Shown: one piece after another, positions 3,814 through 47,400 of the stretch | How the letters are laid out: each line of letters begins with the position of its first letter | Numbering within the stretch: the first letter of the stretch is position 1 | From: a phage | Length of the DNA stretch: 64,000 bases | Assembly (NCBI GenBank): GCA_027263115.1 | Contig: GCA_027263115.1_3656.1 | Direction: 5' to 3' (one strand) | The notes under the pieces: generated by a model | The model's input: the letters and a program-made list of their open reading frames with translations, nothing else | Told to the model about the DNA's origin: nothing | The model's database searches: none | Program-made: the position numbers and the translations under genes

Positions 3814-4077
3814 TCAGAAACCCTCTAAAAAGCTCTTGTAGAAAACAATCTCAGTATCCACACCAGTCACAATCTTGTCGTTCCTGATTTCATCGGTAAG
3901 ATAGGTGTCAAAACGCAGAACCTGTGTGGTGTTGTCACACATCCACTCAGCTGTGACCATTGCGAAAATCTTAGCATCTTCATTATCTGGTGTGAATGTT
4001 ACCACCTCACCGCACTTAAACTTTTCGATAGGTTGAGTGTTAGCTTTCGGTTCTGCGATAGTGATTTTTGTGGTCAT
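3814..4077 (-). CDS. small protein, tandem paralog 3 of 3
   Basis: 87 aa; same length as the two upstream ORFs, shared N-terminal pattern, ATGA overlap. Confidence 0.55.
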   Translation of the reverse strand: MTTKITIAEPKANTQPIEKFKCGEVVTFTPDNEDAKIFAMVTAEWMCDNTTQVLRFDTYLTDEIRNDKIVTGVDTEIVFYKSFLEGF

Positions 4078-4340
4078 TATTCTCCTCCTTCTTTTGAATA
4101 GCTTGTCTCTCCAAGGATGGTAATTTTGGTGTCAAGCTCTGTAACTTTCATGTTTGGTGGCAGATCGTACAACTCATTATTTTCTAAATCGAACCCCCAC
4201 ACACAATGTTCTCCTGTTTTGACAATCATAACTATGTTTTGAATGCCGTCTCCGTCGCAACTTACCACGGTCCCACACGGAAAGCTGTCTGCACGCTTTT
4301 TGTTCTTCACCTTAGAATTGAATACAATGCTGGTAGCCAT
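4077..4340 (-). CDS. small protein, tandem paralog 2 of 3
   Basis: 87 aa; MATxxxFxSxxKxKK start shared with the 4340-4603 paralog. Confidence 0.55.
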   Translation of the reverse strand: MATSIVFNSKVKNKKRADSFPCGTVVSCDGDGIQNIVMIVKTGEHCVWGFDLENNELYDLPPNMKVTELDTKITILGETSYSKEGGE

Positions 4341-4603
4341 TATTGTTCCTCCACCATAACTTCGCCAAGAATTTCTATGCAGGCATCCATTTCTGTAACA
4401 ACCAAACTGTGAGGTAGTTCTACAAACACCTTTCTGAACAGGTCAAATACCCCAACATATATGTTTGCAGGATGTGATTTTACAACAAGTGCTGTATTCA
4501 CATCCCCAAGTTCATCAACAAACATCACCACAGTGCCTGGAGCTACTGAGGACAGATACTTCTTAGTTTTACGGTTTGATGCAAATTTTAACTCTGTTGC
4601 CAT
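4340..4603 (-). CDS. small protein, tandem paralog 1 of 3
   Basis: 87 aa; first of three head-to-tail paralogs. Confidence 0.55.
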   Translation of the reverse strand: MATELKFASNRKTKKYLSSVAPGTVVMFVDELGDVNTALVVKSHPANIYVGVFDLFRKVFVELPHSLVVTEMDACIEILGEVMVEEQ

Positions 4604-4635
4604 AAATAACCTCCTCTCTTACTTAGCGTACTCGA

Positions 4636-6099
4636 TTAATTCCACAGTTTTCCCAAAGCTCGGGATATAATTTTTATTATACCCCTCAGTGAGGACCCAT
4701 AGAGTATCGTACTTTTCCACTTGTTGTCAACAACCTTTTGTTCAAAGTTATGCTCAAAGTATAGGTCGGTCAGGACGATGACATCTTTTGCATTAGGTAT
4801 GTTGGCATCCAGATACTCGAACACGCAAGCAGCTGTTGTGCCCCATGTTGAGTGGACCTCATAGTTGATCATCTCGTCTATGTTGCCGCGAGTGTATACT
4901 TTAACCTCTCCAACCTCAGTTGACCAACAGAACATTGTAACCTTAAACTCTTTATACAGATTGCACAATCCGGTGATTTCATTGAACATTTTCTTTAAAG
5001 TTCTTTGAGAGATCGAGCCAGAAACGTCTAAAGCCACCACAATATCTATAGTGTTTTCCGGATTACGACCAGGAACAATAACGTGCTGGTTCTTGTTTAT
5101 AGCCCCAACTTTTCGCATTGTGCTGGTCAAAGACCCAGATCGGCGACCAGGTTTTCTGTAGGTCAGTTCGGCCTTTCTTTTAGACAACATGCGTTGCTTA
5201 ATGATGTCTATATAGTTGATTACAGGTTTACCTCTGTTCTTGACAAACTCACGCACCGCCTCAGGGCAACGGCCTCCGGACGCTTGCATTGCTGCCTCCA
5301 GCATATCACCAGAGTCCTGCATGGCCTGATCTTTATCAGATTGGCTGATTACAGGTTGTGGCTGATCATACCCCATAGCCTTTCCAAGATTATCGCTGGT
5401 GCCACCGTTCCCACTCATGTGATCATCGGTTTGTCGCTTATCACTTTGAGAGTTCTCACCTTTACCGTTCTTACTTTTACCGTTATTCTGATCTCTTTGC
5501 TTATCAAGAACTGCATAAACGTTCTCAGCAATCCATCCATGAAACTTCATGTCGCAGTAGCAGCTGGCTAAGAAGCCAAAAGGCTTACCTTTCACGAACG
5601 TAGTGCTTTTCCCCTTCGGGAAGAAAACACAAGGAGGTTTGCTAAAGTCAACCACAAGGCCTGTGTTGATAACGTGATCACAAGCAATATTGAACAGTTC
5701 CGGCTCAAAGCTTTTACCACGGACTAGGTGATCACAGATAATATGCCCCACCTCATGTGACAGAAGGAAGGCCACCTCTTTCACAGATTTTGGGGAATAG
5801 AAAACTTCAGCCATCTCAAACTGCTCGTCAGTTAGAGAAGCCTTAAGAATAGCCTTGCGTTCATCAGCCAATCCCATAATGAACTCAGGACTGTAATAGA
5901 TGCGTTTATGGTCGGTTGCCATGGTGGAGCACCATGTGTGGTTTTCTACGAACTGCAACCCTGACAGTAGTGTGCCATAGAACGGCAGCTTTTCAAGGAG
6001 ATACATACGTGCAGCCTGCAACATTCTCAGGGCATCATCTTTCTGCGAGGCAATGATTTCTGAACTTCTGCTATCCATTAAAACTCCAGAAGGGGCCAT
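4636..6099 (-). CDS. vWA domain protein with N-terminal HExxH putative metallopeptidase domain
   Basis: HEVGH zinc-peptidase motif plus VVALDVSGSIS MIDAS-type vWA motif; real start may be the internal Met near 6078 preceded by GGAG. Confidence 0.65.
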   Translation of the reverse strand: MAPSGVLMDSRSSEIIASQKDDALRMLQAARMYLLEKLPFYGTLLSGLQFVENHTWCSTMATDHKRIYYSPEFIMGLADERKAILKASLTDEQFEMAEVFYSPKSVKEVAFLLSHEVGHIICDHLVRGKSFEPELFNIACDHVINTGLVVDFSKPPCVFFPKGKSTTFVKGKPFGFLASCYCDMKFHGWIAENVYAVLDKQRDQNNGKSKNGKGENSQSDKRQTDDHMSGNGGTSDNLGKAMGYDQPQPVISQSDKDQAMQDSGDMLEAAMQASGGRCPEAVREFVKNRGKPVINYIDIIKQRMLSKRKAELTYRKPGRRSGSLTSTMRKVGAINKNQHVIVPGRNPENTIDIVVALDVSGSISQRTLKKMFNEITGLCNLYKEFKVTMFCWSTEVGEVKVYTRGNIDEMINYEVHSTWGTTAACVFEYLDANIPNAKDVIVLTDLYFEHNFEQKVVDNKWKSTILYGSSLRGIIKIISRALGKLWN

Positions 6100-6112
6100 T
6101 GGCCCCTGTTAT
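6087..6112 (-). terminator. intergenic hairpin, possible leftward terminator or attenuator
   Basis: inverted repeat aggggccattggcccct between the 6112-7155 stop and the next gene; weak U-tract. Confidence 0.35.
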
Positions 6113-7155
6113 TATTTAACGTGTTTGAAAATACCTGCCAACTCGGTCATTGTCATGCGGGTGGTCTTCATAAGATCTGTCATAGCTTTCTCCATAATTG
6201 GAGATACTACCATAAAGTTTCCTTTAGTGAAACCTTTATTCCAGTCGGTCACCAACAGAGGTTTAAGTCCAGCTCCAAGACGTTCACCAGTTAAAGCACA
6301 GCATTTGCGAATATACGAACTCTTAAATTGGCTGAACGACAGATCAACTTTCATACCTACATCGTAGAACGTTTGACAATAGAAAGTGTAAGCTTTGGCA
6401 ATCTCAACATCATCAGGTAGTGCAGGAACCTCTTCTGTAAGCTCCTCTTCGACCTCCTGAGTCTCTTTTTCCTCTTCATGCACCTGTTGCGTCATTTCTT
6501 CAATCTCTTCTGTGATAGGCTCGTTTACAATGTCGGAAATGTGCTTCTTGGGTGCACGATAAGTAACTTTAGACATCGGTAGCATATCTTCCTCCTCTTC
6601 TTCGTCAAAGAGTGCTAGTTTATCCTCTTCCGTTCCATATTGCAAGATGAAATCTTCAAAAGTATAATCACCTTTCAATTTCTCCATACGCTCTTCGCTC
6701 AGGTGGAGCATCATCTGCTGGACAATTTTTCGATCAGTTTCGTCTTTAATCAAGACTGCAGTCTTTTTATCTACCAGACAGTCCTTTAGAGAGTTGCATC
6801 TCAATCCCACCACACAACAGTTATCAACCGCATAAGGACCTTCATCATCTATCCGCTCCAGAGATGGGTAGAAAGGATTTCCCAGCCCGTTTTCATCTGT
6901 GTGCATGTCAAAAGGTATAAGGGTATAGTCGCATACTCCATCTCCTAAAAGTTTTTTACCAAATAGGAGGTATTCTTCCCATGACAGGTCGAACTCTATA
7001 TCTCGTTTCCGTGCGTTATTCTGTTTGCGTCTATATTTTTTGAGCAAGCGCTCTAACTCTTCTGGTGTATAATATTTTTCAAGATTCATGAGTCGTCTCT
7101 CGTGCTCTGTAAGTGAAGAAATCGTATCAATTGTCTCAACAGATGTCAACATCAA
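6112..7155 (-). CDS. HNH-like endonuclease domain protein with acidic C-terminal region
   Basis: N-terminal region carries an SLERID...PY..DN....CN..K pattern typical of a phage HNH variant; possible internal start at MSKVTYRA (see inverted repeat finding). Confidence 0.45.
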   Translation of the reverse strand: MMLTSVETIDTISSLTEHERRLMNLEKYYTPEELERLLKKYRRKQNNARKRDIEFDLSWEEYLLFGKKLLGDGVCDYTLIPFDMHTDENGLGNPFYPSLERIDDEGPYAVDNCCVVGLRCNSLKDCLVDKKTAVLIKDETDRKIVQQMMLHLSEERMEKLKGDYTFEDFILQYGTEEDKLALFDEEEEEDMLPMSKVTYRAPKKHISDIVNEPITEEIEEMTQQVHEEEKETQEVEEELTEEVPALPDDVEIAKAYTFYCQTFYDVGMKVDLSFSQFKSSYIRKCCALTGERLGAGLKPLLVTDWNKGFTKGNFMVVSPIMEKAMTDLMKTTRMTMTELAGIFKHVK

Positions 7156-7162
7156 AAACGTG

Positions 7163-7191
7163 TTGACTTTACTCTAACTCCACAATATAGT
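7163..7191 (+). promoter_or_regulatory. sigma70-type promoter
   Basis: TTGACT-17nt-TATAGT in the divergent intergenic region upstream of the 7232 gene. Confidence 0.6.
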
Positions 7192-7231
7192 GCACCCATT
7201 CGAAAGAAAACTAACATAGGAGCACTTACTT

Positions 7232-8131
7232 ATGGCAAATCTTAACAGTTTTAGTACGCGGTGGAAACAGGACATAACAACCAATCTTTCAGCTGGGGAC
7301 ATCCTTTCTGCAATTTACGAGGCTTTAGATGATAAAGCTACTTCAAAAGCGGTTTGTACCAACCCACTAATTCCTGTAGTGATGAAGGTTATTGAGCGTA
7401 GATTGGTATCTGGGTCTGATAAGTGGACATATTTAGATAATGAAGGACACACCTATTCCAATGGGTACGTCGATATAAAAGTAGAATACGCGGTATCATA
7501 CCGCCGGAGCGGTTCTGTAACTTTCAACTTCTCTGGAGGTTTTCGATCTCTGGCTACCTCACCTTTTGTTTCCTCAGAGGAGAAGTATGAGCTGCCATTT
7601 CTTTGGATGATGGCTAACGCGACAGGAAAAACCCCCGTTAGCATCCGAGTAAAATACAACTACAACGGATCTAGTAAGATCTATGCCGAAAGTGTCTCAG
7701 CAAGTTTTTATTTTGTGATGGGGGATGGAATCCTCAAACATATAAAGATGTGCGATATGCATGATGTTATAAATGAAGTGACTGATAAGAATGTTCTAGT
7801 GAAAGACCTCAACAATTTTTATACACCCGGAGACTATTACGTCAGCCGTCCACTGTGCATCTTTAATGCCGCACACCCTCTAGGTGAGTATTTGATCGCC
7901 AATAGTGATATTGCCAATAACCGCTTCGAGGTAGCAAGAGTTCAGAATGAGGTATTGACATCTTGCAAGAGCGGTGATAAGTTTACCGAAGAAGAGATGG
8001 GTGTTTTAGAAATGATGGGATATAAGTGTAGCCTTTGGGTAGATGAGGTGTTTAATGATTGCATCTATGGACAGGATATTTACCCATTAAAGAAGTATAC
8101 TGATACAAGTTTAATTTATGCGAGGGTTTGA
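7232..8131 (+). CDS. hypothetical protein
   Basis: 299-aa ORF with TAGGAG RBS; first gene of the rightward block. Confidence 0.6.
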   Translation: MANLNSFSTRWKQDITTNLSAGDILSAIYEALDDKATSKAVCTNPLIPVVMKVIERRLVSGSDKWTYLDNEGHTYSNGYVDIKVEYAVSYRRSGSVTFNFSGGFRSLATSPFVSSEEKYELPFLWMMANATGKTPVSIRVKYNYNGSSKIYAESVSASFYFVMGDGILKHIKMCDMHDVINEVTDKNVLVKDLNNFYTPGDYYVSRPLCIFNAAHPLGEYLIANSDIANNRFEVARVQNEVLTSCKSGDKFTEEEMGVLEMMGYKCSLWVDEVFNDCIYGQDIYPLKKYTDTSLIYARV

Positions 8132-8406
8132 CTATGATGAAGGCATGTGGTAATGTATATTACGTCGGTGAACATGTTCAGGCAGACAGTGTGTGGAAAT
8201 CTATTAAGTCCACCACTGACGATGCCTTTCTGAGTGGACTATGTTTCCCCAATCCGGGAGACATCCTCCCTCATCCTGGAGATTTTGTTGTCAACAAGAT
8301 GGACGGTTATACCGTGTGCCTGATGGTTGAAAAAATCTTTTTAGACACTAGACACAATCACCGTCTTGTGTTAAAATTTCAAGAATGTAAAATGACAATT
8401 GCCTAA
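8128..8406 (+). CDS. hypothetical protein
   Basis: 92-aa ORF, ATGA overlap. Confidence 0.5.
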   Translation: MTMMKACGNVYYVGEHVQADSVWKSIKSTTDDAFLSGLCFPNPGDILPHPGDFVVNKMDGYTVCLMVEKIFLDTRHNHRLVLKFQECKMTIA

Positions 8407-8419
8407 GGAGACCTTACCG

Positions 8420-8776
8420 ATGTCTAAAGTTACTTATCGTGCAGCTATTTACTGCAATGAACACCCAATCAATAATGATGGTCACTGCCTTTTTAAAGAA
8501 AATCAATTGGGCTGTATTGTCCTCCCTGATGAAGGGGAAGGTTATCTGATTGCATTGACAGGGTTTGAACCTGAGGCTCTGGAAGCCAATCTGGACTACC
8601 TGGTAGAAGAGGGTGCTGCAGACCTGGTTGCCAATGGCCTCTCCATAAGCCTTGACGAAGTAGAGCGCTTCATGGGCAATTACCGTGTAGTGCGTGAGTT
8701 TACTATCGAGGTGGAAACTCCCGAGTGGGGTAGCCATGAAACTAATGCCGAAGAAAAAGAAGAGGAGGTAGAATAA
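8420..8776 (+). CDS. hypothetical acidic protein
   Basis: ATG preceded by AAGGAGA; track start 8399 is a TTG and less likely. Confidence 0.5.
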   Translation: MSKVTYRAAIYCNEHPINNDGHCLFKENQLGCIVLPDEGEGYLIALTGFEPEALEANLDYLVEEGAADLVANGLSISLDEVERFMGNYRVVREFTIEVETPEWGSHETNAEEKEEEVE

Positions 8777-9033
8777 TGAAAGTGCAGATCTTGACTAATG
8801 CCGAGAAGATGTTTATTGAAGATACACCTTTTGAAGCTGGTGAGCTACAGTTCGTTTATTTTGTTGACTTAGATAAGGTGTTTCCTGCACTGAATCTAGG
8901 TTTGGATGAAGTTCCTCATAAGGTTTTGTGCCAAGTTGTTCGTGCCTTAGCGGCAGAGGGGGAGTTCCACACCCTTCAAGATGTCCAGACCTACGGGTAT
9001 CTTGAACTACAACGAGAAGAAGAGGTGGACTGA
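8776..9033 (+). CDS. hypothetical protein
   Basis: 85-aa ORF, overlapping stop/start. Confidence 0.5.
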   Translation: MKVQILTNAEKMFIEDTPFEAGELQFVYFVDLDKVFPALNLGLDEVPHKVLCQVVRALAAEGEFHTLQDVQTYGYLELQREEEVD

Positions 9034-9035
9034 TA

Positions 9036-9416
9036 ATGGCTCAGTGGAAGACAACAGTTGACCTTCATGATCAGTGGTTAGGACGCATCACTGAAGACGG
9101 GAAGCTAGTGGAGTGGGACAATAAGCATGTTAGCGAGTTGGCAAGTATTGTGGCTGGCAAGTTACGCTCCAAGTTCCCTGAACAACTGGATCCTGATAGT
9201 TCAAAGTTCGATCCTGAGTTGGAGGATGTTGTATACTACTTCGATACCGTGGATGACTACGATGCGTGGTTTGCAGCACGGGAGCTTTACCCACAAGGCT
9301 CTGCTATGCGCCAGATGGAAGAAGATTATCCTCCGTGTGAGCAATTCAATAGTGCAATGACTTGCCTCTATGATTGGGCAGATAAGAACCTTGTCTGGAT
9401 TCGGACTGCATTTTAG
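9036..9416 (+). CDS. hypothetical protein
   Basis: 126-aa ORF. Confidence 0.5.
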   Translation: MAQWKTTVDLHDQWLGRITEDGKLVEWDNKHVSELASIVAGKLRSKFPEQLDPDSSKFDPELEDVVYYFDTVDDYDAWFAARELYPQGSAMRQMEEDYPPCEQFNSAMTCLYDWADKNLVWIRTAF

Positions 9417-9460
9417 TGGGCAGGAATGGCGGCAAGGATGCTGCTTAAGGAGTAGTAGAG

Positions 9461-9730
9461 ATGTTATACCAGCAATATGAACTTCGTGCAGAAAAAGAGT
9501 TAAATTTTGACAAAGATATTCACAGATATTATTATGGGAAAGTTAGAGGGCAAGCAAGAAAGTGTACTCCAACACTCTTTTATGCCAGCAGACGACTAGC
9601 GCCAGAAGAGGCAACAGCAGAAAGGGTTGCATACAACTGGGAAGTTGTGTACGATATTGACAGATCCGATGTGATATCTGTTTTGGAAAACTTTGAAAAC
9701 ACTTACACACAAGTAGAGGACTTTTACTAA
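9461..9730 (+). CDS. hypothetical protein
   Basis: 89-aa ORF. Confidence 0.5.
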   Translation: MLYQQYELRAEKELNFDKDIHRYYYGKVRGQARKCTPTLFYASRRLAPEEATAERVAYNWEVVYDIDRSDVISVLENFENTYTQVEDFY

Positions 9731-10914
9731 TGTCAAGAAACGTATTTGAAAGTGGTCAAATCACTGTCCGTGAGTTGCCAGCTATCATTCAGTTTGCCCA
9801 GCGTCATAACCGATCTGTCCTGATTTTAGGACCAATGGGTGTGGGAAAGAGTCAGGTGATGAAGCAGATCGCTGATAATATGTTCGGTGAGCGAGATGAC
9901 AACCTGGTTGACGTGCGGCTGTCAGATAAAGATCCTGCCGACTTATCTGGGCTACCTATCCCTGTAGAAGCGGATGGGACTACACGTACAGTGTTTGCAA
10001 TCCCAGAATTTTGGCCTGCGGATCCTGACTGGAGCGGAATTGTCTTTCTGGATGAGCTCACTCATGCAGATAACTACCTGCAAAAGGTTGCAATGCAGAT
10101 TATGCTCGACCACAAGTGCGGCACCTATGCATTCCCTAAGGGCTCTGTTTTTGTAGCTGCAGGTAACCGTTCTACAGATGGTGCTGTTCTTTCGGCGCTC
10201 GAAGCCCCTCTGGCTAACCGCTTTATCATTGTAGAAGTTACAAGCAACGCAGAGGTGTTTATTGAGGACTACGCATTCCTTAATGGGGTGCACTCCTCTG
10301 TAATTGGATATCTGAAAAGAGTTCCATCAGCTATTGATAATTATGAGGCCATGGCTGAGATTAATTGTCCATCTTTTGCCACACCGCGATCTTGGGTTGC
10401 TGCATCTGATATCTTGCACGATTTTGACAGCGGTATTATTTCTGACGCTATGGCCCGTGTTCTTCTACAAGGTGCTATTGGTCACACTGCAGCGGTAGAG
10501 ATCTGGACTTACCACACCAAGAAACGCAACTTACCGGAAATCGGTCGGATTATGGCAGGAGGTTGCAAAGAATACGTAGGCCCTAAACAGCCAGACATCT
10601 TGTGGATTCTTGGATCTGAAGGTTGTATCGCTATTCGTAATATGATGGAAAATGCAAGTATCTCCGACGAAGATCTTGTTAGCTGTGTGGCAAACTTCCT
10701 CGATTTCCTTTGGGAAAACTTCAAGGACGAGAACCGAGATTTTGTATTCTCAGTCTTTATGGCGATGATGAAACCTAATGCCTTAGGAAATGCCTTGCTT
10801 ATCGGTAAAGGTCGTGACAAGATTGTTGCTCAGCTGATCAAAGCATACCCAAACCTGATGAAGATTGTAAAAGAGTTTGGTGAAGAGTTTAGCGCCATTT
10901 TGGCTAAAGCTTAA
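9730..10914 (+). CDS. MoxR-like AAA+ ATPase (AAA_5 type)
   Basis: Walker A LILGPMGVGKS, Walker B IVFLDEL, and sensor region VFVAAGN typical of MoxR/CbbQ ATPases. Confidence 0.8.
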   Translation: MSRNVFESGQITVRELPAIIQFAQRHNRSVLILGPMGVGKSQVMKQIADNMFGERDDNLVDVRLSDKDPADLSGLPIPVEADGTTRTVFAIPEFWPADPDWSGIVFLDELTHADNYLQKVAMQIMLDHKCGTYAFPKGSVFVAAGNRSTDGAVLSALEAPLANRFIIVEVTSNAEVFIEDYAFLNGVHSSVIGYLKRVPSAIDNYEAMAEINCPSFATPRSWVAASDILHDFDSGIISDAMARVLLQGAIGHTAAVEIWTYHTKKRNLPEIGRIMAGGCKEYVGPKQPDILWILGSEGCIAIRNMMENASISDEDLVSCVANFLDFLWENFKDENRDFVFSVFMAMMKPNALGNALLIGKGRDKIVAQLIKAYPNLMKIVKEFGEEFSAILAKA

Positions 10915-10923
10915 GGAGGTTGT

Positions 10924-11304
10924 ATGGCTAAAGTAGGTAAGCGGGGAAACTACCTGGTGGTATTGACCGAGGAGCCGGAGAAGGAGTACGAATGCAGCTC
11001 CACTTGCGTGATCGATATCCGAGAAAAAGATGTAGATGAAATCTGGTTTAAAATATTGGACGCTTGCGATAGCAGTGATTATTTCTTCATCTATGTCAAC
11101 GATAAGGCTGGGTTCTTCCATGACGACGGAGAGTTGCCGTATGAAATCTATGAACTTGTAGAGGCTTGCCATCGTGGAGATGCGGAGTTGTTTGGCTTAC
11201 GGCTGAAAAGCGGTAAATTCTTCTATCAAGATGAGTGCATGAATCTTCATAACTTTGTAGAGGGAACTTGCAACGATGGAGAGATTTTGGCACACTACGA
11301 TTAA
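10924..11304 (+). CDS. hypothetical protein
   Basis: 126-aa ORF with AAGGAGG RBS. Confidence 0.5.
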   Translation: MAKVGKRGNYLVVLTEEPEKEYECSSTCVIDIREKDVDEIWFKILDACDSSDYFFIYVNDKAGFFHDDGELPYEIYELVEACHRGDAELFGLRLKSGKFFYQDECMNLHNFVEGTCNDGEILAHYD

Positions 11305-19355: not shown

Positions 19356-19362
19356 CACTAGG

Positions 19363-19389
19363 CCCTGCCCGAAAGGGTGGGGCTTTTTG
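19363..19389 (+). terminator. intrinsic terminator
   Basis: gccctgccc-gaaa-gggtggggc hairpin with GNRA-type loop followed by TTTTT; identical hairpin recurs at 31012. Confidence 0.7.
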
Positions 19390-31011: not shown

Positions 31012-31040
31012 GCCCTGCCCGAAAGGGTGGGGCATTTTTG
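31012..31040 (+). terminator. intrinsic terminator
   Basis: same gccctgcccgaaagggtggggc hairpin as at 19363, followed by ATTTTTG. Confidence 0.7.
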
Positions 31041-34839: not shown

Positions 34840-35110
34840 GCAGCTTTCCAAGTACTCGATCTGTTTTTCGTTTCAAAGATTGAATTTTCTGAAAATTTTT
34901 CTCGATAAATTTCTCAGTACTCGATCTGTTTTTCGTTTTCTGAATCTGATTTTCTGGAAATCGTTCCGGCTCTCGACCTGAAATTTTTGGGGACGAAATC
35001 GATTTTTCGTTTTCAGAAATGGATTTTTAAAATTTCTATATGGGAATATTTTAGTGGATACTATTTTATAGGAAATTGTTACGGAGGGTAATTAGCGTGC
35101 TAATTAAATT
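34840..35110. repeat. non-coding direct-repeat region
   Basis: 23-bp direct repeat agtactcgatctgtttttcgttt at 34851 and 34916; tttttcgttttc motifs; palindrome taattagcgtgctaatta at 35089-35106. Confidence 0.6.
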
Positions 35111-35175
35111 TATTAAATGCGAGGAGTTCTCATTTAGAATTTTGAATGATAATCATTCTCGTTTGCAGAATAACG

Positions 35176-35198
35176 GGCAGGCCCGGTGATTGTCTCCC
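35176..35198 (+). repeat. copy A of palindromic ggcaggcccggtgattgtctccc element
   Basis: 23 bp identical to the reverse complement of part of 44620-44662. Confidence 0.6.
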
Positions 35199-36558: not shown

Positions 36559-36954
36559 ATGAATAAGAACGTACGCCGCATCATGAACGAACTGGCAAAC
36601 GATGAAAAAATTATTGACATGCATTTATTCAACATTTGCCGCCGTTGTGTAACATATAACAACCGCGCCGCAAAAGCGCGTGAGATGAATGCGAAAGGCA
36701 CCTTAAAGCCCTTTCAGGTGGTTGTAAAATCTATAACCAGTGCAGCAGGCCAGGCGCATGACCACAACAACGAGAGCGCTAATATTGATCCGTCTTACGT
36801 AATGAAACGGATCCGGACTTGCAAGAATAAAGAGCAGGTGTATAACGTCATAGATTGGCTGGACTCCCTGGGTGATGTGGTTTACAATAGGTTTTCTGCA
36901 GCTATCGAGATCCAGCTTGACAGATTGGACGGGAAAGTACTGAAAACTTACTGA
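36559..36954 (+). CDS. hypothetical protein
   Basis: 131-aa ORF with AAAGGAAA RBS. Confidence 0.55.
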   Translation: MNKNVRRIMNELANDEKIIDMHLFNICRRCVTYNNRAAKAREMNAKGTLKPFQVVVKSITSAAGQAHDHNNESANIDPSYVMKRIRTCKNKEQVYNVIDWLDSLGDVVYNRFSAAIEIQLDRLDGKVLKTY

Positions 36955-37002
36955 GTTTATTTTTAGATGGCCTTGACTCCAGGGCCATCAATAAAGTAAA
37001 CT
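36955..37002 (+). promoter_or_regulatory. repeated palindromic promoter-like element, copy 1
   Basis: tttatttttagatggccttgactccagggccatcaataaagtaaac; 7-bp stem gatggcc/ggccatc with TTGACT in the loop and TAAACT about 18 nt downstream. Confidence 0.5.
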
Positions 37003-37033
37003 AACCACAGTTGAGCGGAAAGGGGGCTTAAAG

Positions 37034-37231: not shown

Positions 37232-37573
37232 ATGACTACTATGACCGCCGCAGAAAAAGCTATGCAGATCGCCGCGCTGAAAAAACAGATCGCAGACCTT
37301 GAGAATAAGATCGATAACTTTGAAATCGACGAGGACAAGTACGACGAAAACTATGATGAATGGTTAGACGAGATCTACGGCGAAATTATGATCGGAAACA
37401 TTTCTTTTCTTCCGTCGCGTATCCTCAAGGAGCTAGATCCTATCGCTTACCGCTGCGGATTTAGCGACTACATCGACAGCTTGGATATTGAGGACGATGA
37501 AGAATACCAGGAATTGCATACAGAGCTTGAAGAAGTGAAAGAAGAGCTTGCAGAACTGGAAGAAAACGAGTAA
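37232..37573 (+). CDS. hypothetical acidic coiled-coil protein
   Basis: 113-aa ORF with AAGGAGA RBS. Confidence 0.55.
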   Translation: MTTMTAAEKAMQIAALKKQIADLENKIDNFEIDEDKYDENYDEWLDEIYGEIMIGNISFLPSRILKELDPIAYRCGFSDYIDSLDIEDDEEYQELHTELEEVKEELAELEENE

Positions 37574-37620
37574 ATTTATTTTTAGATGGCCTTGACTCCA
37601 GGGCCATCAATAAAGTAAAC
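37574..37620 (+). promoter_or_regulatory. repeated palindromic promoter-like element, copy 2
   Basis: identical to the 36955 element; immediately follows a stop codon. Confidence 0.5.
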
Positions 37621-37662
37621 TTTATACTGTTAACACTGAACTAATGCATAGGAGTTAAAACC

Positions 37663-37908
37663 ATGGCAGCACTAATCACCAAATATTATGCCCCTACCAA
37701 CACCAAAAGCGCCCGTATCATGGTAAAAGGCTTCGGACGTAAAAAGGTTTACACCTGGGATTATGCCTTAGACACGGAAGACAACTACACCAACGCGATG
37801 ACCGATTTTATTAATGACCTGAACACGCGGATCTTGACAAATTATCAAATTACCGATATTGCCTATATAGGGGAAGGCGGGATCTGTTTTGTCGGTATCG
37901 TCAAATAA
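37663..37908 (+). CDS. hypothetical protein
   Basis: 81-aa ORF with TAGGAG RBS. Confidence 0.55.
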   Translation: MAALITKYYAPTNTKSARIMVKGFGRKKVYTWDYALDTEDNYTNAMTDFINDLNTRILTNYQITDIAYIGEGGICFVGIVK

Positions 37909-37983
37909 GCTGGTTTTTCGGTGGTCCTGGTAGCAGGGCCATCTATAAAGATAGTTTATCAACACAATGAAAGGAGAAAGTAC

Positions 37984-41106: not shown

Positions 41107-41307
41107 ATGAGCAACAATATCCGCGTTATTAACTTCAAAAAAGAAGAAAAAATTGCCGTGCTGATTGACGGTCAAGAAATCTTCAAGGGCTATTATGAAG
41201 ATCATCAAACGGCGATTAGTATCACTCGCGTGATTGGTTACCATAATTTTTACCCCCAAGGCGCTGAGGCGGCGGTTAAACGAATCAAAGAGATTGTAGG
41301 CCTGTAA
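41107..41307 (+). CDS. hypothetical protein
   Basis: 66-aa ORF with AAAGGAGA RBS. Confidence 0.55.
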   Translation: MSNNIRVINFKKEEKIAVLIDGQEIFKGYYEDHQTAISITRVIGYHNFYPQGAEAAVKRIKEIVGL

Positions 41308-41355
41308 AATTTATTTTTAGATGGCCTTGACTTCAGGGCCATCAATAAAGTAAAT
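41308..41355 (+). promoter_or_regulatory. repeated palindromic promoter-like element, copy 3
   Basis: variant of the 36955 element (ttgacttcagggcc); immediately follows a stop codon. Confidence 0.5.
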
Positions 41356-41400
41356 TTAAACCCTGTTAAAAGACCACGCAGTTAACAAGGAGTGATAGAC

Positions 41401-44619: not shown

Positions 44620-44662
44620 GGCAGGCACCTGGCGACGGGGGGAGACAATCACCGGGCCTGCC
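44620..44662 (-). repeat. copy C (inverted, complete) of the palindromic ggcaggc...gcctgcc element
   Basis: reverse complement begins ggcaggcccggtgattgtctccc (identical to 35176-35198) and continues like 35315-35351. Confidence 0.6.
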
Positions 44663-44687
44663 TGTCATACAAGAACTATAAAAACCG

Positions 44688-46269: not shown

Positions 46270-46880
46270 GTCTGATCTTCCCCCTACCATAAACGGCCCT
46301 ACCTGGCAAGTGGAATAATTGACGAGCCATCAACCCCACACACTGTACAAATATACATGTAAAATAACTATTGCATAACTTTTCATTGTGTGGTAGCAGG
46401 GCTATTTTTACCCGTTTTTCCTTCCAAAATTGCACGTAATGCAGCTATTGCACAAAATTTAACCTGATGCATATCTTCAGTGTCTTGTCAACAACTAAAA
46501 ATCTTTATAAGTCATGCACTTACATAACCACAAAAGCGTGCTCTACGTGAAAAATCGAGTATAACTATAGCCGCCAGATCTCAGAATTTACGTACGCTCA
46601 CCATTCTATAGTCTGCTAAGTATTTATTCCAACCATAGAATAACGGAATAGTCAATACCTGCATAAAATAATTATTCGTGTAAACTGCATAACATAAATC
46701 AGCTTAGGTGTCAACATTTTTCGTAAACAGTCTGAAATTATCACGATGAGTTATCATAAACAGAGAAATCTTTAGTCGTCTAATGTTTACTGTACGTTAC
46801 TATACTAACTGAAATCATTAGATGACTAATAGAAAGATAAGAAATAATTAACAATACAATTATTTTATCTGTAACAATAA

Positions 46881-47166
46881 GGCAACTATGCAAACGAATG
46901 GCATGGCGCGACGGAGTCGCGACATAATATAAAAGCAGTAACCATCACCCCCGTGATAGTTTGTCTGCAATCTATTAATCAGATCATAGTTGCCTTGTAT
47001 TTAGTTAATCATGACATAACAAGCAAGGCAACTATAGATCTGCTAATAGTTGCCCTGCTTTTATATTATGTCATAGGAACGCCCGAAGGGGTGACCTAGT
47101 CACCTGGCATAGCCAGCGAAAGATTATTAACTTGGTAATAGTTATCATGCAAACGAATGGCATGGC
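46881..47166. repeat. nested inverted-repeat structure flanked by 20-bp direct repeats
   Basis: direct repeat atgcaaacgaatggcatggc at 46888 and 47147; 18-bp inverted repeat gacataatataaaagcag (46921) vs ctgcttttatattatgtc (47055); 12-bp inverted repeat atagttgccttg (46986) vs caaggcaactat (47024). Confidence 0.6.
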
Positions 47167-47177
47167 TTATCATCTCT

Positions 47178-47300
47178 GTGTAAACAGTCAATCATGTAAA
47201 CTATTAGATATGTAAACAGTAAAGGGCGTGAACAGTAAGCGAGGGAATAGTAATAGCGTGAATAGTGACAGCGTAAACAGTGACAGCGTAAACAGTCAGG
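47178..47300. repeat. iteron-like GTAAACAGT repeats
   Basis: at least six copies of GT(A/G)AA(C/T)AGT, including two tandem 15-bp units gacagcgtaaacagt at 47267-47296. Confidence 0.6.
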
Positions 47301-47400
47301 CATGTCAATTATGTCATATTGTGTCACCATTATGTCACTATTGTGTCACCAGTATGCCCAGTATGTCAATTGAGTCTAAAGTGTCAAAGGTGTCAGACAA
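47301..47400. repeat. 10-bp-periodic TGTCA tandem array
   Basis: about ten units (catgtcaatt, atgtcatatt, gtgtcaccat ...) each containing TGTCA or a near variant at helical-turn spacing. Confidence 0.6.

Follow-up and report, generated by a model that had tools for sequence, protein, structure and literature searches.

A perfect inverted repeat between two genes of an rV5-like coliphage as the probable footprint of a templated mutation

Here, we have analyzed a perfect 29-bp inverted repeat in a 64,000-nucleotide stretch of phage DNA (hereafter the window), which belongs to an rV5-like coliphage (Vequintavirus) and is 99.9% identical to phage LL12. It is very probable that this repeat records a single templated mutation, by which the start of gene gp008 would have been copied into the linker of gene gp011, and that it most likely has no function. 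This reading is based on comparison with relatives, which polarizes the two arms, and on the short homologies that flank the copied patch.

The repeat and the genes that carry it

Reading of the sequence showed that TACCGATGTCTAAAGTTACTTATCGTGCA, which lies on the plus strand at the start of gp008, is present as its exact reverse complement within gp011 (coordinates of all features are shown in Table 1). A repeat finder returned the same 29-nt pair with 100% complementarity and arms 1833 nt apart. No other exact inverted repeat in the 64-kb window is as long, and a pattern search allowing up to three mismatches gave exactly two matches to the 29-mer. A chance origin was ruled out by dinucleotide-preserving shuffles, none of 100 of which contained a match. 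The same sequence was also found in 28 GenBank records (26 phage names when FFH2 and Murica are counted without their RefSeq copies) and in one human-gut metagenome contig. Chance similarity or an assembly artefact can practically be dismissed as an explanation.

The preliminary description of this repeat, made from the sequence alone, was accurate in that the repeat is perfect, duplicates a start codon and eight codons, is in frame in both genes and brackets the divergent promoters. It correctly placed the promoter region and the genes at 7232-8406 between the arms, which is incomplete in that the 5' 60% of the minus-strand gene also lies there. The minus copy is indeed internal to that gene, the start of which is, for most depositors, the ATG at 7089 (325 aa) and not the TTG at 7155 that had been given for an ORF at 6112-7155. 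It should be noted that the minus-strand promoter falls inside this longer ORF. Both divergent promoters are sites annotated in phage Gotham.

A profile match to phrog_3118 was obtained across the whole gp011 protein (residues 3-324, E 6.5e-113), and its N-terminal domain also matched Srd anti-sigma, sigma70-decoy and endonuclease VII PHROGs at 1e-10 to 1e-13. By this significant whole-protein match, gp011 is predicted to belong to the Srd/HNH-like class of phage early proteins. It consists of two conserved domains (about residues 1-160 and 223-325) with a hypervariable acidic linker between them. No Pfam, NCBIfam or PDB sequence match could be observed for gp011, gp010, gp009 or gp008. A 'fucosyltransferase' label among gp010/gp009 comes from depositor annotation, for which Pfam gives no support.

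Table 1. Features of the window around the inverted repeat
Feature	Position	Strand	Remarks
Donor arm	8415..8443	+	Last 5 nt of gp008 leader, ATG (8420) and codons 2-8 (MSKVTYRA); native
Recipient (derived) arm	6553..6581	-	gp011 linker, encodes LPMSKVTYRA (residues 170-179); in 28/118 GenBank relatives
gp011	6112..7089	-	325 aa; Srd/HNH-like early protein (predicted); phrog_3118
gp008	8420..8776	+	118 aa; phrog_12908
gp008 Shine-Dalgarno AAGGAG	8405-8410	+	Outside repeat
gp010	7232-8131	+	Between arms
gp009	8134-8406	+	Between arms
Sigma70-like early promoter	7149-7121	-	TTGACA-17-TACGAT, with TG
Sigma70-like early promoter	7163-7191	+	TTGACT-17-TATAGT
Imported 13 nt, TCTAAAGTTACTT	6561..6573	-	Replaces ancestral 25 nt, CAGGATTTTAAAAATTTCATGGCTG
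Left microhomology ACCGATG, 7 nt	6574..6580	-	Also in gp008, 8416-8422
Right microhomology ATCGTGCA	6553..6560	-	Ancestral form 10 nt, ATCGTGCAGC
GGAGG, Glu-codon sequence	6595-6591	-	Ancestral; outside repeat
Upstream Met169 ATG	6585-6583	-	Ancestral; outside repeat
ATG of the repeat	6576-6574	-
Predicted inversion junction A			gp009-end/AAGGAG/arm/CCCAAGAAGCAC
Predicted inversion junction B			GAGGAAGATATGC/arm/GCTATTTACTGC

Direction of copying and the imported patch

In every relative examined, gp008 begins with MSKVTYRA and its start reads ATGTCTAAAGTTACTTATCGTGC, with two synonymous changes in FV3. The gp008 arm was considered native because this sequence is present at the gp008 start in every Vequintavirus relative examined. 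The gp011 of 90 of the 118 GenBank relatives, including rV5, has no MSKVTYRA, and the gp011 arm was absent from all six IMG/VR relatives and five other genera. Thus, absence of the repeat in close relatives, which had been named beforehand as an observation against a functional reading, is what was found (90/118 GenBank and 6/6 IMG/VR relatives). An alignment-based scan of IMG/VR returned the same six loci and one weak match.

At the corresponding site, the linker protein reads ...DMSPMQDFKNFMA(N/D)R(G/A)ANKH... in repeat-lacking relatives and ...DMLPMSKVTYRAPKKH... in the window. The repeat-lacking gp011 alleles (L004, L005, FV3, JES2013, slur16, I29 and JeffSchatz) read ...TCACC(A/G)ATGCAGGA(T/C)TTTAAAAA(T/C)TT(T/C)AT(G/A)GCT(G/A)ATCGTG(C/G)AGCC..., and a homologous PAQELREFMEKR occupies the gp011 site in the 64% relatives. 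The gp011 arm was taken as derived because the relatives all have the gp008 start, whereas about 90 of 118 and all distant homologues lack it in gp011. With the derived state polarized by outgroups in this way, the alignments show that copying ran from gp008 to gp011. The reverse direction was rejected, since the gp008 start is constant in the relatives examined and the gp011 site aligns, as far out as the 64% relatives, with a different, homologous sequence.

Comparison of the alleles further establishes, at the sequence level, the exact patch and the microhomologies flanking it. The 13-nt insert and the net change of -12 nt (four codons, in frame) are wholly accounted for by gp008 8423-8435, and the protein change in gp011 is from QDFKNFMA(N/D) to SKVTY. 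The left microhomology, ACCGATG, pre-exists in the ancestral gp011 of JES2013 and reads ACCAATG in most other alleles. The 10-nt ancestral form of the right one is found in gp011 of JES2013, I29, JeffSchatz and slur16, and ATCGTGCAGC is also present in gp008 (8436-8445) for four genomes; JeffSchatz gp008 has one substitution there. In JES2013 both microhomologies are exact, gp011 reading TC[ACCGATG]...25 nt...[ATCGTGCAGC] and gp008 reading TT[ACCGATG]...13 nt...[ATCGTGCAGC]. In 64 kb, about 20-27 inverted configurations of 10 + 7 nt are expected by chance. The gp008 start is the same in derived and ancestral-state genomes, which means that the donor was unaltered and the transfer non-reciprocal. 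Thus, a polarized arm, a donor in the same genome, microhomology at both switch points and an unchanged donor, that is, all the features that define a templated mutation, could be identified.

Three substitutions abutting the patch (TC to CT upstream; GCC AAC to CCC AAG downstream) match neither the donor nor known ancestors, and they are unexplained because none of the sampled alleles is an immediate precursor that combines these flanks with the unaltered patch. They may be errors made in the event or ordinary allele divergence, the latter because the gp011 block carrying the patch shows about 7-10% divergence from every other allele.

We suggest that the event took place in a Vequintavirus ancestral to the LL12/Murica/FFH2 group. 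DNA synthesis in the gp011 linker would have left its template at the 7-nt ACCGATG, copied 13 nt from the gp008 start, 1.8 kb off and in inverted orientation, and returned to gp011 at the 10-nt microhomology, by which a chance quasi-repeat (7 + 10 nt) would have become a perfect 29-bp inverted repeat. The route that we favor is a replicative strand switch, in which, with the fork moving from gp008 towards gp011, the leading-strand 3' end would jump back by roughly the length of one Okazaki fragment to lagging-strand template that is still single-stranded. Template switching in recombinational repair synthesis (an ectopic micro-conversion) would be an alternative route, which the data equally allow. 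The short spacer of a hairpin-mediated template switch was not found here. The spacer of 1,833 nt is far longer than in studied events, which makes hairpin fold-back implausible and requires a route across the fork or through recombination.

The patch is located in a linker that differs wholly in length and sequence between genera, with conserved domains on either side, which suggests that the change was tolerated and the event neutral. However, the overwritten motif, Q-[DE]-[FL]-[KR]-x-F-M, is conserved down to the 64% relatives, which counts against neutrality.

With regard to the number of events, the central block of gp011 (6354-6785) divided the records into 28 that were at least 98.6% identical and 90 that were at most 89.9% identical, with none between. 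One central-block allele is common to the 28 records, which shows that the event happened once. In ECP32, the allele of the window is confined to the central block, and the rest of the gene is FV3- and JES2013-like. Independent recurrence in this phage was rejected in favor of recombination, because about 200 nt on either side of the patch also have the window's allele. Identity between the two arms is down to 24 nt in ECP32 and to 27 nt in both A51.2 and PMBT16. These comparisons show that the patch later spread through homologous recombination and that each arm has since decayed on its own.

Functional readings of the repeat

It had been proposed that the minus copy marks an internal start behind a GAGGAAG-like ribosome-binding site, or a fused gene. 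Fusion at the repeat was rejected: full-length two-domain homologs of 33-46% identity, which do not have the repeat sequence, occur in other Vequintavirinae genera, and the same architecture is found in Seunavirus, Mydovirus, Henunavirus and a Serratia phage. On this comparison, gp011 is an old two-domain protein and not a fusion made at the repeat. An internal duplication of gp011 was not supported by BLASTP of its two halves (E = 1.5). As for the internal start, the duplication would have created or would mark a functional initiation site, from which the C-terminal half of gp011 would additionally be translated as a separate protein beginning with MSKVTYRA. An in-frame ATG with an upstream GAGGAGGAAG run, and the fact that this half is a conserved, self-contained domain, agree with such a reading, but copying extended no further than 5 nt upstream of the ATG, and the AAGGAG of gp008 was left behind. 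The nearest GGAGG is ancestral and lies 14 nt from the ATG of the repeat vs 5 nt from that of Met169. Moreover, the 64% relatives have Ala where the repeat encodes Met, and the ATG predates the event (PMQ to PMS), therefore the repeat adds no start codon. No significant structure could be observed in the local gp011 mRNA (z 0.0). A Shine-Dalgarno sequence at functional spacing with a conserved start codon, as would define a nested gene, was not found, and internal initiation is very unlikely.

Because the sense sequence is identical in both mRNAs and overlaps the translation-initiation region of gp008, we also considered whether the 29 nt could be selected in both genes as a shared operator for a translational repressor, a small RNA or a DNA-binding protein. 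Such an element is absent from gp011 in 76% of relatives, its arms are not kept identical in the three phages with diverged arms mentioned above, and the gp011 copy is located 500 nt into the coding region. A shared RNA structure was rejected by folding both contexts, which gave no structure in common and no significant fold in either (z -1.6 and 0.0). In addition, no third copy was found in the window (at most three mismatches). A shared regulatory element therefore appears highly improbable.

The geometry of the repeat is right for inversion: recombination between the arms, as the preliminary description had pointed out, would invert 6582-8414. An invertible segment, programmed or recombination-driven, in which the arms would serve as crossover sites to flip the 1.8-kb promoter-bearing segment, would join the N-terminal domain of gp011 to a different C-terminal partner, giving an N-gp011::gp008 fusion and a free C-gp011 expressed from the gp008 Shine-Dalgarno. 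Both products are in frame and look expressible in the predicted sequences, a repeat of 29 bp is about as short as homologous recombination in bacteria and phages can use, and phage invertible segments that exchange C-terminal gene parts are known (Mu G and P1 C). Nevertheless, none of the 108 matching phage records covered at least 80% of a chimeric query spanning the inversion junction, all full-length matches were single collinear pieces, and the metagenome contig with both arms (L018) has the same collinear arrangement. Thus, the predicted inversion isomers did not appear in these assemblies. No recombinase or invertase was found in the eight flanking ORFs (Pfam) or in the depositor annotation of window positions 4000-11000. 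In addition, only one orientation occurs among genomes, the repeat is missing in 90 of 118 relatives (76%), and the arms decay independently. We therefore regard an invertible segment as extremely unlikely. It is also very improbable that, in the approximately 26 carrier phages, the repeat acts as a substrate for homologous recombination of phage or host, with a sub-population of genomes having the 1.8-kb segment inverted. If this were true, the two early promoters would be re-aimed, and an in-frame N-gp011::gp008 fusion and a free C-terminal gp011 domain would be made, that is, an accidental, newly formed two-state early-gene switch. Overall, no sign of a switch or regulatory site was found, and the repeat most likely has no function.

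Comparison with known systems and significance

Mutations templated by quasipalindromes form a known class, with a model proposed by Ripley in 1982, hotspots in E. coli thyA and rpsL, and 'short-range template switch' clusters in yeast and human. The event in gp011 resembles them in that an imperfect repeat was perfected in one step, with a substitution and an indel templated by the other arm between short flanking homologies. It differs in its spacer (1,833 nt vs a few to about 70-100 nt) and in that the 29-bp repeat extends across two genes and forms no local hairpin. Classical gene conversion relies on flanking homology of tens to hundreds of bp, whereas just 7 and 10 nt are available here. 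In phage T4, a 2008 study by Schultz and Drake (Genetics 178:661) reportedly described templated mutagenesis from imperfect direct or indirect repeats. The present case is similar with respect to a phage genome, an ectopic donor and a complex mutation copied from an imperfect repeat elsewhere; however, the T4 cases were laboratory mutations in a reporter gene, and here a fixed natural variant has reached about a quarter of sequenced isolates.

Template switching at imperfect inverted repeats was first described in the lytic phage T4 and involves two switches, intra- or intermolecular, resulting in multinucleotide changes that perfect the repeat; one survey limited spacers to 70 bp, cruciforms being unlikely beyond, and in another, switching repeats had shorter spacers (PMC5941160, PMC8604942). 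In gene-conversion repair, a partly copied strand can re-align to another template, according to a preprint (bioRxiv 10.1101/2023.08.09.552703). The event is also similar to ectopic (non-allelic) short-patch gene conversion or template switching in recombinational repair of the SDSA/BIR type, with a short tract, non-reciprocal transfer, an intact donor and junctions in short homologies. Compared with Mu G/Gin, P1 C/Cin, Salmonella Hin and R64 Rci, the inverted repeats likewise lie in coding sequence, and flipping would swap C-terminal parts in frame and redirect promoters; the likeness is one of geometry alone, as no invertase gene was found nearby, one orientation is present, and the repeat is unconserved with decaying arms. 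No paper linking rV5 or Vequintavirus to an inverted repeat was found in the literature searched.

The repeat is therefore a real feature and a further example of a known mutational process, and reveals no new biological system. Its value is that of a fully polarized natural templated mutation in a phage, in which donor, recipient, both microhomologies and a precursor-like state (JES2013) are directly readable, and in which the donor is 1.8 kb away and not within a hairpin. A single, apparently neutral step can yield a long perfect inverted repeat over a start codon and bracketing promoters, which calls for caution in reading such repeats as switches or operators. Finally, the pasting of an N-terminal stretch of one protein into the linker of another represents a small-scale route to sequence novelty.

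The repeat and the genes around it

The window comes from a Vequintavirus, an rV5-like lytic coliphage; over 5500-9500 it shares 99.9% identity with phage LL12. The 29-nt sequence TACCGATGTCTAAAGTTACTTATCGTGCA was found at the start of gp008 on the plus strand, and its exact reverse complement lies inside the minus-strand gene gp011 (see table). This perfect inverted repeat, reported in a preliminary description of the window, was recovered by direct reading, a repeat finder and a pattern search (up to three mismatches), the last of which found only these two copies; 100 dinucleotide-preserving shuffles contained none, and no exact inverted repeat in the window is longer. As also described, the plus copy supplies the start of the 118-aa ORF, its ATG (8420) and codons MSKVTYRA, and the minus copy encodes LPMSKVTYRA within gp011.

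For the ORF 6112-7155 of that description, most depositors place the start at the ATG at 7089 (325 aa) rather than at the TTG at 7155, and a sigma70-like promoter falls within the longer ORF. The segment between the arms holds the promoters and genes 7232-8406, as described, and also the first 60% of gp011, which had been omitted. PHROG 3118 matched the whole of gp011 (LL12 and Murica numbering; E 6.5e-113). The N-terminal domain had further matches to the T4 Srd anti-sigma, sigma70-decoy and endonuclease VII PHROGs, which explains the inconsistent database names of gp011 (anti-sigma factor, HNH endonuclease, anti-termination protein). The sole matches of gp008, gp009 and gp010 were PHROGs of unknown function.

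Positions of the repeat, neighboring genes and other features in the window
Feature	Position	Strand	Remarks
Plus arm	8415-8443	+	at gp008 start
Minus arm	6553-6581	-	inside gp011
gp008	8420-8776	+	AAGGAG at 8405-8410
gp009	8134-8406	+	
gp010	7232-8131	+	label 'alpha 1-3 fucosyltransferase' without Pfam or NCBIfam support
gp011	6112-7089	-	
gp012	4636-6099	-	RefSeq 'HNH endonuclease' vs Pfam DUF2201_N metallopeptidase and VWA-like domain
sigma70-like promoter	7149-7121		
Divergent sigma70-like promoters (two, including the one above)	between gp011 and gp010		same sites as annotated in phage Gotham
Gene-scale mosaicism	5811-8776		window vs relatives L010-L017
51-nt intergenic repeats (four)	36953-37003, 37572-37622, 37907-37957, 41307-41357		67-96% identity to reference copy; resemble a terminator or regulatory cassette used repeatedly; copies 36953 and 37572 (the two read) directly 3' of a stop codon, with hairpin GATGGCC-TTGACTCCA-GGGCCATC and A/T-rich flanks
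Second 29-nt inverted pair	35170-35198, 44640-44668		93% complementary (GGGAGACAATCACCGGGCCTGCC...), arms 9.4 kb apart
ORF-poor region	46700-47400		no ORF >67 aa; possibly non-coding or regulatory; exact 20-nt direct repeat ATGCAAACGAATGGCATGGC at 46888 and 47147
Terminator-like hairpins	19362-19388, 31012-31038		near-identical, GCCCTGCCCGAAAGGGTGGGGC, 11.6 kb apart; T-rich tails TTTTT and ATTTT
Three abutting 87-aa ORFs	3814-4603	-	N-termini MATSIVFNSK..., MATELKFASN..., MTTKITIAEP...; this resemblance makes them candidate tandem paralogues, an array of small early proteins
Adjacent 57-nt direct repeats (two)	34845-34966		77% identical, starts 65 nt apart

Direction and spread of the copied patch

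The preliminary description had named absence from close relatives as evidence against its own reading, and the repeat was absent from all six IMG/VR relatives. In the two closest (gp011 proteins 91% identical), the gp008 start is still ATGTCTAAAGTTACTTATCGTGC and gp011 reads ...GAAGATATGTCACCAATGCAGGATTTTAAAAACTTCATGGCTAATCGTGGAGCCAACAAGCAC... (= DMSPMQDFKNFMANRGANKH) where the window has DMLPMSKVTYRAPKKH; the homologous MTPAQELREFMEKRAEKH occupies this site in four more distant loci (the 64% relatives). Across the GenBank genome panel, the gp008 start was conserved in all genomes examined and gp011 occurred in two forms, so that the gp011 arm is the derived one and was copied from gp008.

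An 86-nt query spanning the derived patch matched 28 GenBank records (27 identical; ECP32 with two mismatches), and the ancestral version, without the patch, matched 90, including rV5, FV3 and JES2013. Identity in the central block 6354-6785 was bimodal (28 records at ≥98.6%, 90 at ≤89.9%, none between). ECP32, with an overall identity to the window of only 93%, has a mosaic gp011 that resembles JES2013 at its 5' end, FV3 at its 3' end and the window only in the central block, which bears the patch. Together, these patterns show that the patch arose once and was later moved by homologous recombination.

Homologous recombination is pervasive in this region. JeffSchatz and the window agree at 100% from the intergenic region through gp008, apart from gp010 at 99.9%, and at only 92-95% in gp011. 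A51.2 and PMBT16 exceed 98% everywhere but in gp009 (91.9%). The two arms are not kept identical: all 29 nt are common to them in the window, Murica, Gotham, LL12 and a human-gut metagenome contig, 27 in A51.2 and PMBT16, and 24 in ECP32. It should be noted that sixteen GenBank MG0656xx 'Campylobacter phage' records (for example, MG065635 and MG065655) match this E. coli Vequintavirus over the region at 92-99.7% identity; fifteen give C. jejuni as host, a doubtful label.

Anatomy of the event and its possible mechanism

In the gp011 patch, 25 nt (CAGGATTTTAAAAATTTCATGGCTG) were replaced by 13 nt (TCTAAAGTTACTT), a net change of -12 nt that keeps the reading frame, and the replaced stretch is flanked by two short sequences already common to both sites. 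JES2013, in the ancestral state, has TC[ACCGATG]...25 nt...[ATCGTGCAGC]CAAC in gp011 and TT[ACCGATG]...13 nt...[ATCGTGCAGC]TATT in gp008, both microhomologies being exact. Since ∼20-27 such inverted 10-mer and 7-mer pairs are expected per 64 kb of shuffled sequence (10-mer and 7-mer at most 40 nt apart, inverted pair within 3 kb), this precursor needs no special explanation. Three substitutions adjoin the patch (TC to CT upstream; GCC AAC to CCC AAG downstream) and match neither donor nor known ancestral alleles. No sampled allele combines the window's flanks with the ancestral patch, and the three changes may be either part of the event or ordinary divergence.

The repeat shows the pattern of a templated mutation and its defining features: the copying was non-reciprocal and left the donor as it was, the donor specifies the whole of the complex change, each junction has microhomology, and an imperfect inverted repeat became perfect. 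Template switching at imperfect inverted repeats, with two switches that may be intra- or intermolecular, was first proposed for phage T4 (PMC5941160, PMC8604942), and a partly copied strand re-aligns in a comparable way during gene-conversion repair synthesis (bioRxiv 10.1101/2023.08.09.552703). The present repeat works like quasipalindrome correction or ectopic micro-conversion. However, the template-switch events studied have short spacers (PMC5941160, PMC8604942), a feature of the classical hairpin-mediated switch that is not shared by these arms, unusually 1.8 kb apart; hairpin fold-back is therefore unlikely here.

In the route inferred here, a fork would run from gp008 to gp011, and its leading-strand 3' end, with ACCGATG as its last bases, would anneal to the still single-stranded lagging-strand template about one Okazaki-fragment length behind, copy through ATCGTGCA(GC) and then return. 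Recombination-dependent replication or break repair would also lead to this product, through strand invasion at microhomology. Our literature search found no link between rV5-like phages and this repeat.

Functional readings of the repeat

Recombination between the arms had been proposed to invert the intervening segment. The hypothetical products are both in frame (an N-gp011::gp008 fusion, and a free C-terminal gp011 domain behind the gp008 Shine-Dalgarno), but the inverted isomer occurred in no record. None of 108 phage records matching a constructed junction query reached 80% coverage, 27 records gave two normal partial matches, and every full-length match was a single collinear piece. The metagenome contig with both arms has the same 1,867-nt spacing, and no recombinase was detected among flanking genes (Pfam, depositor annotation). 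Compared with site-specific invertible segments, the repeat lacks all three testable features (recombinase, second orientation and conservation). Because the products stay in frame, low-level isomers in lysates are possible, though unsupported.

The suggested gene fusion is ruled out by full-length two-domain homologues (33-46% identity) in Seunavirus, Mydovirus, Henunavirus and a Serratia phage, whose linkers are completely different in length and sequence. Thus, gp011 is an old two-domain protein with the patch in a hypervariable acidic linker. The event overwrote a motif, Q-[DE]-[FL]-[KR]-x-F-M, modestly conserved in Vequintavirus and the 64% clade, and the patch may have a phenotypic effect.

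Spacing, ancestry and relatives all go against the second in-frame start with a GAGGAAG-like RBS. The copied tract reaches just 5 nt beyond the ATG on its upstream side and leaves out the gp008 AAGGAG. In gp011, the GGAGG stems from ancestral Glu-codon sequence and is spaced 5 nt from Met169, which is upstream and also ancestral, and 14 nt from the ATG of the repeat. The repeat's ATG is itself older than the event, and its Met is Ala in the 64% relatives. A shared RNA element was also rejected: the two mRNA contexts fold unlike each other, without significance in either case (z -1.6 and 0.0).

The repeat most likely has no function and adds a new case to a known mutational process. It lets templated mutation be read with unusual clarity and cautions that perfect repeats at gene starts need not mean function.
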